This document shows positions 21,775 through 27,753 of a stretch of 64,000 nt of DNA, piece by piece. Position 1 is the stretch's first letter, and each line of letters starts with the position of its first letter. A program made the position numbers and the translations under genes. The DNA comes from a phage. The notes beneath the pieces are model-generated. The model had not been told where the DNA came from. It made no database searches and saw only the letters and a list, made by a program, of their open reading frames with translations. The stretch lies in the NCBI GenBank assembly GCA_012690745.1, contig GCA_012690745.1_4086.2; one strand, given 5' to 3'.

Positions 21775-21972
21775 ATGCGTATTTTAACTCAAGCAGAACA
21801 CCACGAAAGACTTATCAATAACATGGCTATGATAATGTATAAGTCACATGACCGTGGTATTGCCTATAAGCGTGAATTAATTATGGCACTATTCATTGGA
21901 ACTAACTTTCAGGAAAGGTATGTCAAGGATTGGATTTGGTATTTAATTGAAGATGTAACGAGTAAACTATGA
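21775..21972 (+). CDS. small paralog family member 1
   Basis: Trimmed from track 21745 to ATG 21775 (RBS AAGGGAG); motif FIGTNFQERYV. Confidence 0.6.
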   Translation: MRILTQAEHHERLINNMAMIMYKSHDRGIAYKRELIMALFIGTNFQERYVKDWIWYLIEDVTSKL

Positions 21973-22169
21973 AAATGCGTAAATTAACCGAAAAAGAATA
22001 TCAAGCACTGTTACGTAAAAACTTCACAAAGATTTATAATACAGACTCACACGTAGAACGAATGGAGTTATACCTTTTGATTACATTGGGAACTAACTAT
22101 CAGGATGCATGGGTAACGAAATATGTGGATACATTGAAAAATAAAACATTGTCCACGAGGAAACAATGA
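21969..22169 (+). CDS. small paralog family member 2
   Basis: ATGA overlap; motif LGTNYQDAWV. Confidence 0.6.
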   Translation: MKMRKLTEKEYQALLRKNFTKIYNTDSHVERMELYLLITLGTNYQDAWVTKYVDTLKNKTLSTRKQ

Positions 22170-22375
22170 AAACTATAACACGAACCCAATCATTCGGACT
22201 TATCTTGAAATACATGGACTTAATGGTGGATATCAGCAAAGACCTGCCTAAAACTGCAATTGAAGTTGCAAGAGCAGAGATCCGCATGTTGGCTGTACTG
22301 AACACAAACCATCAGGAAGAGTATGTTGACGATTGGATTCGATTTTTAATAGAAGATATTAAGAGTAAACTATGA
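22166..22375 (+). CDS. small paralog family member 3
   Basis: ATGA overlap; motif LNTNHQEEYV. Confidence 0.6.
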   Translation: MKTITRTQSFGLILKYMDLMVDISKDLPKTAIEVARAEIRMLAVLNTNHQEEYVDDWIRFLIEDIKSKL

Positions 22376-22584
22376 TTATATTAACACCTGAAGAATATAA
22401 GAAACGTTTTAAATCTGTCCAGGCTGAAATATTACTTATATACCTTTCAAATGCAGATCTTAACTTATCAAGGGTAATGGAGAAGGATTTACTTATGGGT
22501 GCATTTTTGGATACAGACTTTCAGGAGTATTATGTAGGGGAATACTTTATTGCACTTCAGAACCACATTAAGAGTAAACTATGA
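22372..22584 (+). CDS. small paralog family member 4
   Basis: ATGA overlap; motif FLDTDFQEYYV. Confidence 0.6.
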   Translation: MIILTPEEYKKRFKSVQAEILLIYLSNADLNLSRVMEKDLLMGAFLDTDFQEYYVGEYFIALQNHIKSKL

Positions 22585-22796
22585 TTATTCTAGAAAAATC
22601 ATATCAATATACTGAACGCATCGCTGCCAGACAACTTGAAATCCTCATAGTATATGAAGAGACTGATGATTTAAACTTAGCATTAGTATTGGAAAATGAT
22701 ATACTATTGGGTGCATTCCTCGGCACAGACTATCAGGAGCACTTCTTGAATGAGTATATAATTGCACTCCAGAAATACATTAAGAGCAAACTATGA
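22581..22796 (+). CDS. small paralog family member 5
   Basis: ATGA overlap; motif FLGTDYQEHFL. Confidence 0.6.
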   Translation: MIILEKSYQYTERIAARQLEILIVYEETDDLNLALVLENDILLGAFLGTDYQEHFLNEYIIALQKYIKSKL

Positions 22797-23011
22797 AACA
22801 TTTAAGTAATTACGAGAAGAATAAAATTATCGTTGCTGCAATAAACAAATATTTTACACTTCCTCACACAGAAGGTTTATGTGTAAGGGAACACAGGATA
22901 AACACCACCGATATACGCATGATGGCTGTACTGGGGACGAACTTTCAGGAAGAGTATGTTGTTGCACACATAGTTGCCCTCACTGATTTAATAAGGGACA
23001 AATGCAAATGA
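22793..23011 (+). CDS. small paralog family member 6
   Basis: ATGA overlap; motif LGTNFQEEYV. Confidence 0.6.
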   Translation: MKHLSNYEKNKIIVAAINKYFTLPHTEGLCVREHRINTTDIRMMAVLGTNFQEEYVVAHIVALTDLIRDKCK

Positions 23012-23316
23012 AACACTTAACTGATGATGAATTTGAAACTATAATTCGTAAACTAACCCCCATCACAAGGATAGTCTACGGTGACCCCAGCCTTACATGG
23101 AACCAAATGCGAGCTAAAGTTAATGAGCTATGGTTGCTGTACTTTATGGGGACTCAATATCAAGATAAGTTTTGCACAGAATATATCGAACAATTAACGA
23201 ATGTTATACAGGATAAACTAGATGATTATTTGCTCACAAAACATGAAGATTTTATCAGGAGTGGAGTATCAGACTGCCCTCTTCTCTCTTCTAAACACCC
23301 TCCGCACGAACAATAA
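23002..23316 (+). CDS. small paralog family member 7 (C-terminally extended)
   Basis: Motif FMGTQYQDKFC; the usual stop at the ctATGA junction is absent, so frame reads on ~30 codons over next gene. Confidence 0.5.
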   Translation: MQMKHLTDDEFETIIRKLTPITRIVYGDPSLTWNQMRAKVNELWLLYFMGTQYQDKFCTEYIEQLTNVIQDKLDDYLLTKHEDFIRSGVSDCPLLSSKHPPHEQ

Positions 23317-23494
23317 ACTTTATAATTCCCGTGAAGCTGATATCGTCAACGCTGATGTATATCTTAATAAATTCATAGGGACTAACTATCAAGAACTGTT
23401 CACTCTACGATATATCGCTGCATTGAGAAACGAAATATCAGATAAAACCCGTCAAGCCAGAAGAGAATGGAATAAACAATGCGACACAGACTAA
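23222..23494 (+). CDS. small paralog family member 8
   Basis: Starts MII like other members; motif FIGTNYQELFT. Confidence 0.55.
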   Translation: MIICSQNMKILSGVEYQTALFSLLNTLRTNNKLYNSREADIVNADVYLNKFIGTNYQELFTLRYIAALRNEISDKTRQARREWNKQCDTD

Positions 23495-23727
23495 ATCACA
23501 AAATGTATTGTAAACTATTACAGACACTGGCACAGAAACACTATGACACGGTATCTGGAATATTACCCTATGATATCATGCGTTTACTTCACTGTGAGGC
23601 CGAGATGCTTGTACTGATGACAGGCACTGATAAAACAGCAATCGCCAGATCGATAGAGCAATATATTGATGCACACTGCCAACACATGAGAACCGAAATC
23701 TGGAGGAAAGAGAATGATAATTCTTAA
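23479..23727 (+). CDS. small paralog family member 9 (divergent)
   Basis: N-terminus fits family; motif region divergent (MTGTDKTAIA). Confidence 0.5.
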   Translation: MRHRLNHKMYCKLLQTLAQKHYDTVSGILPYDIMRLLHCEAEMLVLMTGTDKTAIARSIEQYIDAHCQHMRTEIWRKENDNS

Positions 23728-26030: not shown

Positions 26031-26241
26031 TGAATATCATAAGATTGTAATGAAGACTAATAGTGCTTACGCTAAAAAATCAAACCCAAAGTACATACTG
26101 GAACACACATTCGAAGAACGTCAATTAGCTCTAGTTGAAGCAAAACTTCTTGCACTCCTAGGAACAAACTATCAGGAAGAATACATCAGAAAACTAATAT
26201 ACCTTTTAACTAAACACATCAGGAAAAGAAAAAAAGCATGA
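25999..26241 (+). CDS. small paralog family member 20
   Basis: Motif LLGTNYQEEYI. Confidence 0.55.
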   Translation: MLKNLKILTVNEYHKIVMKTNSAYAKKSNPKYILEHTFEERQLALVEAKLLALLGTNYQEEYIRKLIYLLTKHIRKRKKA

Positions 26242-26468
26242 AACACTTGACAGATGATGAACATGGGCTTATAGTAATGGATGTAATCAACATCGAATAC
26301 AAAAAGTTGATACGCTATCGTTGTTATGAAGATAAGCAACTCGTTCTAGCAGAACAGAAGTTGTTTCGACTCTTAAACACAAACTACCAAGCACAATACG
26401 AAGAATCGTACATGTACCTTTTGGCGAGGAAAGCAAAAAGAGATTATGAAAATTTTAAGCAAAGGTGA
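26238..26468 (+). CDS. small paralog family member 21
   Basis: ATGA overlap; motif LLNTNYQAQYE. Confidence 0.55.
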   Translation: MKHLTDDEHGLIVMDVINIEYKKLIRYRCYEDKQLVLAEQKLFRLLNTNYQAQYEESYMYLLARKAKRDYENFKQR

Positions 26469-26667
26469 TTCAGTAATATTACTTATAGAGAGTTCAAGTA
26501 AATTCTTAAACATAACACTGTCTGATATAGATGAAGATGACAAAGAAGTACTGAGAGCAGATTTAAGAGTACTGTTACATCTCGGAACAAACCTACAAGA
26601 AGAATATGTAGAGTGCTACATCAATGAACTTAAAGAATCAGTACTGAGAAGATGCAAATGCGAATGA
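26446..26667 (+). CDS. small paralog family member 22
   Basis: Motif HLGTNLQEEYV. Confidence 0.55.
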   Translation: MKILSKGDSVILLIESSSKFLNITLSDIDEDDKEVLRADLRVLLHLGTNLQEEYVECYINELKESVLRRCKCE

Positions 26668-26879
26668 TTACCGACGAAGAATACCTAACAATTATAAATG
26701 GATTGTTTTTGAAGTTGTTTGTTATTAACACATCAGATATACCAGATATGGATAAAATTATTAAGAGAAATGAAATCTATGTTCAAGCTACACTAGGGAC
26801 TAACTATCAAGAATGCTATATTAATGATTATATTAATACACTTAAACGAGCGATTGAACTAAAATGCCAAAACCACTAG
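26652..26879 (+). CDS. small paralog family member 23
   Basis: Motif TLGTNYQECYI. Confidence 0.55.
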   Translation: MQMRMITDEEYLTIINGLFLKLFVINTSDIPDMDKIIKRNEIYVQATLGTNYQECYINDYINTLKRAIELKCQNH

Positions 26880-27079
26880 GAACAGCAGAATACATTGAAC
26901 TCATGGGATTACACTTCTCATCCTTTCAGAAACTTATGCGAGATTCAAAGAATGATTTAGAATATACCATCAGAAGTTCAGAATTAAGAATGCTTCTCAC
27001 CCTAGACACAGATTCCCAAGAGCGTTTTGTCAATGAGCACATTAGAGCACTTTTAATGGAAATTAAAAGTAAACTATGA
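26864..27079 (+). CDS. small paralog family member 24
   Basis: Motif TLDTDSQERFV. Confidence 0.55.
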   Translation: MPKPLGTAEYIELMGLHFSSFQKLMRDSKNDLEYTIRSSELRMLLTLDTDSQERFVNEHIRALLMEIKSKL

Positions 27080-27291
27080 AGATAATATCAAACCAAGAGT
27101 ACTTGGCACTATTCAGAAAGAATAATCACAAATTTATGGCACTTGATTCAAGAACTGATATAAGTGAACTTGAAAAAAATCTTTTGCGTTCAGATATGAT
27201 AGTACTGACACTCTTAGGAACACAGCATCAAGAGAGAACTGTTAATTCACACATAGGTATTCTTATACAGATTGTACAGGAAAAGATATGA
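27076..27291 (+). CDS. small paralog family member 25
   Basis: ATGA overlap; motif LLGTQHQERTV. Confidence 0.55.
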   Translation: MKIISNQEYLALFRKNNHKFMALDSRTDISELEKNLLRSDMIVLTLLGTQHQERTVNSHIGILIQIVQEKI

Positions 27292-27509
27292 GAATCATAT
27301 CACAACAAGATATTCTTAAGTTCACAAGGGTTCATGCATCTGAATTTGATGCTATATTATCAAAAAGTTACAATGACCCTTATACACAAGATGTACATTA
27401 CAGTGAATTATGGATGTATATACTTTTAGGTACAAATAAGCAAGAGCAAGCCGTACAGAAGTATTTGACAGCTTTACGTGATGCTACAGCTAATGGAGTA
27501 TGTGTTTAA
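27288..27509 (+). CDS. small paralog family member 26
   Basis: ATGA overlap; motif LLGTNKQEQAV. Confidence 0.55.
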   Translation: MRIISQQDILKFTRVHASEFDAILSKSYNDPYTQDVHYSELWMYILLGTNKQEQAVQKYLTALRDATANGVCV

Positions 27510-27510
27510 T

Positions 27511-27753
27511 ATGAAAGTACTGACAGAACTAGAAATGTATCATAGATTTAATAAGTACTATCATTTACTTAAGCCTATACAGAGGATTAAATGTCCATTT
27601 GAAGAGAAACAGGTTTTAATCTATGAGCACAAGTTCTTTGTATCATTAGGTACAGATCAACAAGAGTACTATTTGACGTTGTACTTGATTACATTAATAG
27701 ATTTAATTCACTATAAAACCAAACAAGCTAATAAAGAGAAATATGAAAACTAA
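27511..27753 (+). CDS. small paralog family member 27
   Basis: Trimmed from track 27478 to ATG 27511; motif SLGTDQQEYYL. Confidence 0.55.
   Translation: MKVLTELEMYHRFNKYYHLLKPIQRIKCPFEEKQVLIYEHKFFVSLGTDQQEYYLTLYLITLIDLIHYKTKQANKEKYEN

Follow-up and report, generated by a model that had tools for sequence, protein, structure and literature searches.

Tandem gene arrays in 121Q-like jumbo phages

Tandem gene arrays have been mentioned, in one sentence each, for 121Q and phage G (Hua et al. 2017, PMC5646251) and for phAPEC6 (Wagemans et al. 2020, PMC7247149), and were read there as the result of tandem duplication. These papers give neither coordinates nor a family definition, structure or function for the arrays. 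The array described here lies at positions 21775-27753 of a 64,000-nucleotide stretch of DNA (contig GCA_012690745.1_4086.2 of assembly GCA_012690745.1), which is called the window and belongs to an Asteriusvirus (121Q/PBECO4-like) jumbo coliphage. It is a polycistronic block of 27 paralogs with four dispersed copies, each of which encodes a cytoplasmic three-helix protein of about 70 amino acids (aa). The published arrays of 121Q and phAPEC6 come from the same genus and probably occupy the same or an adjacent locus. The reported count of "more than 30" fits the 30-31 members found here, whereas the reported "very similar genes" do not fit the present copies, with their identity of about 25%. 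As an explanation of this block, a library of diversified small binders that is expressed early and serves host interaction or counter-defence is tentatively favoured, with somewhat less than even confidence.

The gene family and its members

A sequence-only reading of the window had proposed 27 consecutive small genes of one family, amplified in tandem. The array consists of 27 back-to-back + strand open reading frames (ORFs) of 65-104 aa, which run to position 27753 (the raw ORF list opens at 21745), and none of them is interrupted by a stop codon in the window. All 27 align as one family in a multiple alignment. Leave-one-out (LOO) hidden Markov models (HMMs) recover 26 of the 27 members with E values from 7e-22 to 4e-9. 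Member 9 reaches only E 0.08 in this test and is tied to the family by BLASTP single linkage, by its matching length and position, and by a three-helix AlphaFold2 (AF2) model. BLASTP single linkage joins 30 ORFs. A six-frame scan of the whole window with the full HMM matched the array frames and four extra + strand members, and no hit with E<1e-3 was found outside the + strand family frames. The family has 31 members in 64 kb, which makes it the largest paralog cluster of the window. The members are listed below; each is supported by the family alignment and the LOO HMM unless other evidence is named, and additional evidence stands in brackets.

21775-21972, + strand: member 1, 65 aa (LOO HMM E 1.4e-14; AF2)
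21969-22169, + strand: member 2, 66 aa
22166-22375, + strand: member 3, 69 aa
22372-22584, + strand: member 4, 70 aa, 54% identical to member 5 (paralog identity)
22581-22796, + strand: member 5, 71 aa (paralog identity)
22793-23011, + strand: member 6, 72 aa
23002-23316, + strand: member 7, 104 aa, with a C-terminal extension
23243-23494, + strand: member 8, 83 aa counted from the conserved Met (ORF opens at 23222)
23479-23727, + strand: member 9, 82 aa, divergent, with TGTDKT and a 6-residue insertion in the core loop; evidence from the BLASTP link and AF2
23714-23929, + strand: member 10, 71 aa
23926-24144, + strand: member 11, 72 aa
24135-24353, + strand: member 12, 72 aa
24350-24580, + strand: member 13, 76 aa
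24582-24821, + strand: member 14, 79 aa counted from the conserved Met (ORF opens with TTG at 24555)
24851-25114, + strand: member 15, 87 aa counted from the conserved Met (DNA repeat with member 14)
25111-25326, + strand: member 16, 71 aa
25327-25557, + strand: member 17, 76 aa (paralog identity)
25547-25807, + strand: member 18, 86 aa (paralog identity, residual DNA repeat)
25773-26030, + strand: member 19, 85 aa (paralog identity)
25999-26241, + strand: member 20, 80 aa
26238-26468, + strand: member 21, 76 aa (LOO HMM E 3.7e-9)
26446-26667, + strand: member 22, 73 aa
26652-26879, + strand: member 23, 75 aa
26864-27079, + strand: member 24, 71 aa
27076-27291, + strand: member 25, 71 aa
27288-27509, + strand: member 26, 73 aa
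27511-27753, + strand: member 27, 80 aa counted from the conserved Met (ORF opens with GTG at 27478)
29057-29272 and 29242-29508, + strand: two outlying members; evidence from the HMM (E 5e-11 and 2.5e-6) and BLASTP
42108-42329 and 42307-42498, + strand: two outlying members; evidence from the HMM (E 5e-6 and 9e-12)

Several of the first ATG, TTG or GTG starts in the raw ORF list precede the conserved N-terminal M-[KRI]-x-L-T. The start of gene 1 is 21775 and not 21745, because the ATG at 21745 directly abuts a -10 hexamer and a Shine-Dalgarno (SD) sequence precedes 21775:

21763-21769, + strand: SD sequence AAGGGAG of gene 1 (duplex dG -7.9 kcal/mol with the anti-SD sequence)

The signature that had been read from the sequence needs revision. 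The proposed motif [LF][LI]GT[ND]YQE[EQ][YF]V matches 0 of 27 members as a regular expression; the actual core, G-T-[NDQ]-x-Q, is present in 22 (GT[NDQ].Q), and only the looser pattern [GND]T[NDQ].[QT] covers all 27. Threonine is the sole invariant residue, while the glutamine and one leucine are conserved in at least 90% of members. The members had also been described as mostly ending in KSKL, which is true of only four; five end in SKL. Net charge ranges from -6 to +10 and the isoelectric point (pI) from 4.5 to 9.95.

Conservation in the array is at the protein level and not at the DNA level, because the conserved Gly, Thr, Leu, Gln and Val residues are encoded by freely varying synonymous codons. 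Tandem Repeats Finder (TRF) reported no gene-length tandem DNA repeat in the array, and Rfam and tRNA searches gave no hits. These results, together with the variable synonymous sites, rule out a DNA- or RNA-level repeat element. Of the 16 codons for the conserved Asn of G-T-N-x-Q, 15 are AAC, whereas the ratio elsewhere in the same genes is 65 AAT to 38 AAC. Such a bias at a core residue is consistent with selection for accurate decoding of a critical position.

The coding density of the array is 99.5%, and all three frames are used in rotation. A single long or alternative reading frame is ruled out by the rotation of frames, by the lack of HMM signal in minus-strand ORFs and by nonsynonymous to synonymous substitution ratios (dN/dS, omega) that favour the + frames, to which the HMM signal is also confined. 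Two minus-strand ORFs, 25459-25755 (98 aa) and 25500-25730 (76 aa), lie antisense to members 17-18 and carry no family or HMM signal; they are probably spurious, given their overlap with well-supported + strand genes.

Duplication, divergence and selection

Paralogs share a mean identity of 25%, with 31% between adjacent and 25% between non-adjacent members. The closest are members 4 and 5 (54%), 17-19 (44-54%) and 14 and 15 (45%), and the pair 20 and 21 is also among them. Residual DNA repeats are weak (60-80% similarity at a spacing of 212-269 nt), and the clearest trace is a 269-nt duplication unit shared by members 14 and 15 with 74% nucleotide identity. The genes originated by head-to-tail copying of a unit of approximately 213-269 nt. 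Judged by their divergence, these duplications are old, because paralogs average only about 25% identity. The description of the array as amplified therefore holds for a tandem family and fails for a recent event, since paralog identity is low and no gene-length repeat was reported by TRF.

Comparison with related phages showed that the array diverges much faster than its surroundings. Its nucleotide identity is 89.9% with 121Q, 94.0% with G17 and 95.3% with SHEFM2K, with insertions and deletions, while the flank at 56.5-64 kb is 99.3%, 99.6% and 98.4% identical, respectively. The nucleotide divergence of the array is thus about 15-fold above that of the flank in 121Q and G17. Against JNE01, ORFs of the terminal-repeat region are 94% identical at the amino acid level, whereas best matches of array ORFs reach only 37%; the best matches of JNE01 in the window are roughly collinear for the first half of the JNE01 array. 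Orthologs are collinear between phages, with single members missing or replaced. Four window members lack an ortholog at 60% identity or more in vB_Ec-M-J, and nine lack one in 121Q. Member 14 is 100% identical in 18 phage records. The 121Q ortholog of member 3 (121Q record 2712-2876) is truncated at the N-terminus and otherwise identical. In SHEFM2K (record 1870-2294), the best matches of members 4 and 5 stand in swapped order, which suggests gene conversion or rearrangement between the youngest paralog pair.

Pooled dN/dS of the array is 0.34 with SHEFM2K, 0.35 with vB_Ec-M-J and 0.36 with 121Q. Omega in the array (0.35) is twice that of the repeat region (0.17) and also above the value downstream (0.28), and two members have omega near 1. 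Judging from these ratios, each copy is under purifying selection. Substitutions between orthologs cluster at positions 3, 5-7, 53-58, 61 and 68, which correspond to the N-terminus and one face of helix 3 (54, 57, 58, 61, 68), while the core residues hardly vary. Within one phage pair, dS of individual genes runs from 0 to 1.1, and this spread points to the exchange of divergent alleles and not to clock-like divergence. The array appears to have evolved by birth and death of genes combined with such mosaic exchange between phages.

These data bear on the view that the paralogs are weakly selected filler, that is, that tandem duplication let the genome grow to match a larger capsid (the ratchet of Hua et al. 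2017) and that the copies, each of little function, have persisted and drifted apart. This is how the arrays of 121Q and phAPEC6 were understood by Hua et al. and Wagemans et al., and the gain and loss of members between phages, the omega relaxed relative to neighbours and the two members near 1 agree with it. However, all 27 ORFs are intact although paralog identity of about 25% makes the duplications very old, pooled omega is 0.35 and not 1, and some orthologs are 100% identical in 18 phages. Fold-defining residues and the AAC codon of the core Asn (15:1) are kept, overlapping starts and stops are maintained, and the array holds the same position in JNE01 despite sequences down to 37% identity. 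Drifting filler is therefore considered unlikely.

Gene junctions, promoters and operon structure

Stops had been described as overlapping the next start in the form ctATGA. Overlap is indeed the rule, at 22 of the 26 junctions and by 4-74 nt, but the 4-nt ATGA type occurs at only 11. Of the remaining junctions, three have gaps of 0-1 nt and one has the largest gap, 29 nt. The SD-like energy before starts averages -4.5 kcal/mol against a background of -1.7 kcal/mol, and no convincing + strand terminator was found within the block. Translational coupling of the genes is plausible, because they are packed without intergenic space. The elements around the block are as follows:

21717-21744, + strand: putative leading sigma-70-type promoter TTGACT-16-TATTAT (10/12 consensus match)
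26247-26275, + strand: internal promoter-like site TTGACA-17-TATAGT (11/12), formed from the member 21 codons CAC TTG ACA (H-L-T)
27743-28457, + strand: a pair of overlapping genes from another family (annotated as PHROG 13866 in SHEFM2K), which also overlap member 27 (ORFs, SHEFM2K annotation, BLASTP)
28459-28487, + strand: following sigma-70-like promoter TTGACA-17-TATAGT, TG-extended; it occupies the first true intergenic space beyond the array

A single promoter at 21717-21744 had been placed before the block. This promoter is present as a 10/12 match, is identical in 121Q, keeps its hexamers with a varied spacer in vB_Ec-M-J, and has a different -10 in SHEFM2K. The array also contains the 11/12 site at 26247. 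The internal site is possibly coincidental, and its conservation is uninformative as promoter evidence, since the whole of member 21 is equally conserved in relatives. Control of the block by the leading promoter would follow from the anatomy of the locus, and the likely transcription unit extends from 21717 to about 28457, with the 27 family genes and the two genes of the other family.

Sites matching the sigma-70 consensus at 11 or more of 12 positions are 13-fold enriched on the + strand of the window (32 against 2.4 expected), and 21 of them lie in the repeat region; taken over all sites, the promoter scan is level with shuffled sequence (67 against 65). The repeat region (1-21677) is dense in small + strand ORFs, each behind a near-perfect sigma-70 promoter, with 12 sites at 12/12 (TTGACA-16/17-TATAAT) and 9 at 11/12. 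It looks like a monocistronic immediate-early region, unlike the long operons that come after it. The few intergenic gaps downstream carry sigma-70-like sites (e.g., 28459, 44875 and 48765). A perfect hairpin, GGGATTGACTnnnGTCAGTCCC, occurs in the repeat region in three copies (14629-14650, 17932-17953 and 20191-20212) with AAA/TTT flanks followed by GCTATTAT, and has six matches over both strands against 0 in shuffles. The -35 hexamer TTGACT lies inside the hairpin stem, and the array promoter uses the same TTGACT/TATTAT hexamers. The hairpin is possibly a combined terminator-promoter element.

The packing of the genes raises the question of whether the paralogs are subunits of one hetero-oligomer, binding each other in an intracellular structure or scaffold outside the virion, which would account for equimolar coupled expression. 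Subunits of complexes with fixed stoichiometry are typically made by translational coupling, helical-bundle proteins often oligomerise, and a metagenomic sequence fuses members 20 and 21 in frame. This sequence, P0001, is found on a contig of 3149 bp from the European Nucleotide Archive; it encodes 154 aa, joins the two orthologs as ...HIRKRY-MKHLTDDE..., and corresponds to window 25999-26468. It was seen once, on this contig only, and could reflect a natural fusion as well as a mistake in assembly or sequencing. Copy number and membership vary among close relatives (23-27), which is hard to reconcile with a fixed complex, and surface charge varies greatly. A hetero-oligomer is considered quite unlikely.

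Predicted fold and database searches

A small helical domain had been anticipated for the family, and structure prediction agrees. The AF2 model of member 1, built from the 27-sequence alignment, is a three-helix bundle with a predicted local distance difference test score (pLDDT) of 96.8 and a predicted template modelling score of 0.79. Its helices span residues 6-24, 29-39 and 46-64, and a single beta bridge connects residue 2 to the invariant Thr43. Member 9 also yields three helices in a matching layout, with a pLDDT of 88. In the model, the N-terminal M-K-x-L-T-x-x-E-Y is located at the start of helix 1 and the central L-G-T-N-x-Q-E at that of helix 3, and the beta bridge links these two motifs. 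L-T-x-x-E in helix 1 and T-N-x-Q-E in helix 3 look like N-capping boxes, and the glycine appears to end helix 2. The signature motifs are accordingly read here as the scaffold of the predicted fold and not as an active or catalytic site.

A search for homologues returned matches in PHROG and in phage relatives, none of which has a known function. The phrog_4148 profile matches 26 of the 27 members, all except member 9 (best E 9.3e-27; member 1, E 6e-20 over residues 1-65 of 65), and phrog_28039 matches 15 of them. The SHEFM2K annotation assigns its orthologs to the same two PHROGs, 4148 and 28039, which are sequence clusters of unknown function without a structure or any statement about an array. 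Searches of Pfam, NCBIfam, PADLOC and PDB sequences gave no match. Foldseek found nothing below E = 6.9 in the PDB, and the BFVD fold search returned only members of the family itself, from 121Q, UB and slurp01.

The string L-G-T-N-x-Q-E-x-V-x3-I-x2-L superficially resembles sigma region 4 and LuxR-type helix-turn-helix (HTH) motifs, a likeness that serves as a lead only. If it were meaningful, the proteins could be nucleic-acid-binding regulators, each adjusting its own promoter or RNA of phage or host, and the 16 of 27 members that are basic (pI > 7.9) would suit this role. In the AF2 model, however, the three long helices of 19, 11 and 19 residues do not have HTH geometry, no HTH entry of Pfam or NCBIfam matches, and eleven members have neutral to acidic pI values, the lowest being 4.5. 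An HTH or sigma-region-4 reading of L-G-T-N-x-Q-E-x-V is not supported by the model or by the PDB and BFVD fold searches, and a regulator function of this kind is highly unlikely.

Host phage, terminal repeat and distribution

In nucleotide comparison, window 21000-29000 matches 37 phage records, all of them Escherichia or Salmonella jumbo phages of the 121Q/PBECO4 group. SHEFM2K is the closest over this interval, with 95.3% identity at full length, whereas coverage is only 84% in 121Q and 75% in PBECO4. Every gene annotated under this interval in the matched relatives is a "hypothetical protein". Across the 64 kb, the + strand carries every ORF of real size.

The array begins just beyond a long direct terminal repeat (DTR). 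The right physical end of vB_Ec-M-J, whose annotated DTR is 1-21525 (21,525 bp), aligns up to window 21677. The DTR of fEgEco12 is 20,993 bp according to PhageTerm and restriction digests (PMC13070987), and this length, with an offset of 684 from nucleotide alignment, leads to the same boundary. The leading promoter of the array begins 40 bp past it, in unique DNA.

21603-21677, + strand: end of the approximately 21-kb DTR, boundary at about 21677 (mapped from vB_Ec-M-J and fEgEco12)

The inverted repeat AATCCCTT/AAGGGATT lies at 21603-21610 and 21627-21634, inside the end of the DTR. Together with repeated AATGCGT(A/T)A motifs, it occupies the last ~150 bp of the repeat (21520-21677), immediately ahead of the right physical end of vB_Ec-M-J. 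This stretch is a candidate packaging or termination signal. The window itself starts about 684 nt before the equivalent of the left physical end of fEgEco12 (window 21000 corresponds to record 20316); either the source record was not cut at the terminus, or the repeat of the present phage is longer. GC content drops at the repeat boundary (window ~20000-28000) from 0.37-0.40 to 0.31-0.33, and coding-strand AT skew peaks at 0.16-0.22 in the array, compared with 0.05-0.15 upstream and 0.01-0.07 downstream.

The family is narrowly distributed, and every phage identified as its source belongs to the Rak2-like jumbo phages. Among 1.84 billion representative proteins scanned with HMMER, only 78 clusters (at 50% identity) yielded matches, and a broadened profile of 58 sequences added nothing new. 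Ten weak clusters were looked up: four belong to Klebsiella Rak2-like phages (K64-1, KP13-7, RCIP0023 and phiKp_21), three to Asteriusvirus and three to metagenomic contigs. By tblastn, the family occurs in 36 phage records, all Asteriusvirus. The main array has 27 copies in the window and in SHEFM2K, 26 in vB_Ec-M-J, 23 in 121Q and about 19 in JNE01, while the roughly 10 copies of Klebsiella phage K64-1 are dispersed in groups of 2-3.

The array had been placed directly upstream of a further array, and this is borne out by BLASTP. Downstream ORFs (27743-47136) form more paralog families, one with 12 members (27743 ... 46645) and one with 8 (38214 ... 47136). Ten proteins sampled downstream (30215-57621) had no match in Pfam.

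Packaging in the virion, as internal-head proteins injected with the DNA, is hardly probable: jumbo phages package many small proteins and phAPEC6 has an inner body (PMC7247149), but the phAPEC6 homologues gp467c-gp489c are missing from its published proteome of 62 virion proteins (an inconclusive absence, since mass spectrometry can miss small proteins), and the array lies in a sigma-70-promoter region beside the terminal repeat and not in a structural module.

A library of host-interaction binders as the favoured explanation

The early-expressed library of small binders can be outlined as follows. Host sigma-70 RNA polymerase would transcribe the block early, from the promoter located 40 bp beyond the repeat at the left end, and this transcription would continue that of the promoter-dense repeat region. 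Coupled re-initiation would then yield all paralogs together and in similar amounts. The proteins would form a panel of binders that share a rigid common scaffold and differ in their surfaces (charge, N-terminus and the face of helix 3), and each may be aimed at a different host factor or defence protein, or at a variant of one. It is proposed that the large set, the differences from phage to phage and the fast divergence relative to the flanks exist because the targets differ. A comparable arrangement was proposed for the related phage CBB, with early genes within and beside a terminal repeat that was suggested to continue the early RpoD-promoter-driven region (PMC5259590). The literature search found no Asteriusvirus transcriptome and no report on the function or transcription of the locus.

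A more specific version would make the array a phage repertoire, in which about 30 versions of one undescribed three-helix scaffold, expressed together from the first unique DNA beyond the terminal repeat, each neutralise a different host defence or target variant. Duplication, diversification of surfaces and the swapping of alleles among phages would supply new specificities. This version is doubtful.

Several points weigh against the proposed library. Searches of Pfam, NCBIfam, PADLOC, PDB sequences and folds, and BFVD showed no similarity to a known anti-defence, takeover or regulatory protein. Equimolar coupled expression would suit a hetero-oligomer as well as independent binders, and an omega of 0.35 with frequent gain and loss also fits weakly constrained accessory genes. 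The leading promoter matches the consensus at only 10 of 12 positions, and its -10 differs in SHEFM2K.

The significance of the array differs with its explanation. Jumbo phages that form no nucleus, 121Q among them, leave 350 kb of DNA open to host defences, and about 80% of their genes have no assigned function. The position at the repeat boundary among host-type promoters, clade restriction, a confidently predicted fold without known relatives, and divergence about 15-fold above that of the flanks with every copy intact form the profile expected of a host-interaction or counter-defence module. The array is a well-defined, easily deleted candidate determinant of host range in jumbo coliphages used for therapy, and new small protein inhibitors might be derived from it. 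If its copies proved dispensable, it would be a clean test case for the growth of jumbo genomes by tandem duplication.

Comparison with known systems

What is already known consists of GenBank records for dozens of phages, the PHROG clusters and the one-sentence mentions of arrays. The family definition, the predicted fold without relatives, the position at the terminal repeat, the operon anatomy and the strong hypervariability were not found in the literature searched.

Anti-CRISPR (Acr) and anti-defence clusters are likewise composed of small, clustered genes that are hypervariable between close relatives and lack conserved domains. The array has no PADLOC or known-structure match to them. 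Acr loci contain mixed unrelated families, usually with an HTH Aca regulator, whereas the array is a single family and no regulator gene was found in the block.

The early genes of T7 (gp0.3 Ocr, gp0.4 and gp2), the pre-early genes of T5 in its terminal repeat and the early genes of T4 encode small cytoplasmic proteins and are transcribed by host RNA polymerase from strong sigma-70 promoters near the genome end. The array would resemble them in all these respects, its products being small, cytoplasmic and driven by sigma-70 promoters at or near a genome end. In contrast, these early genes are single-copy and mutually unrelated, while the array is a family of 27-31 members in one operon, and no similarity in sequence or fold was found.

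The terminal multigene families of African swine fever virus (ASFV) and the poxviruses have experimentally shown roles in host range or immune evasion. ASFV MGF110, MGF360 and MGF505 and the poxvirus host-range families are likewise tandem paralogs beside terminal repeats, vary in copy number and alleles between isolates, and evolve faster than the core genome. The proteins and hosts are unrelated, the function of the present array is only inferred, and it has no sign of recent accordion-like amplification. It can be concluded that the array is an uncharacterised instance of the tandem multigene families of large viruses and not a new kind of system. If the repertoire version were true, no larger counter-defence or host-range library built from a single family would be known in a bacteriophage, and the array would parallel the terminal families of ASFV and the poxviruses.

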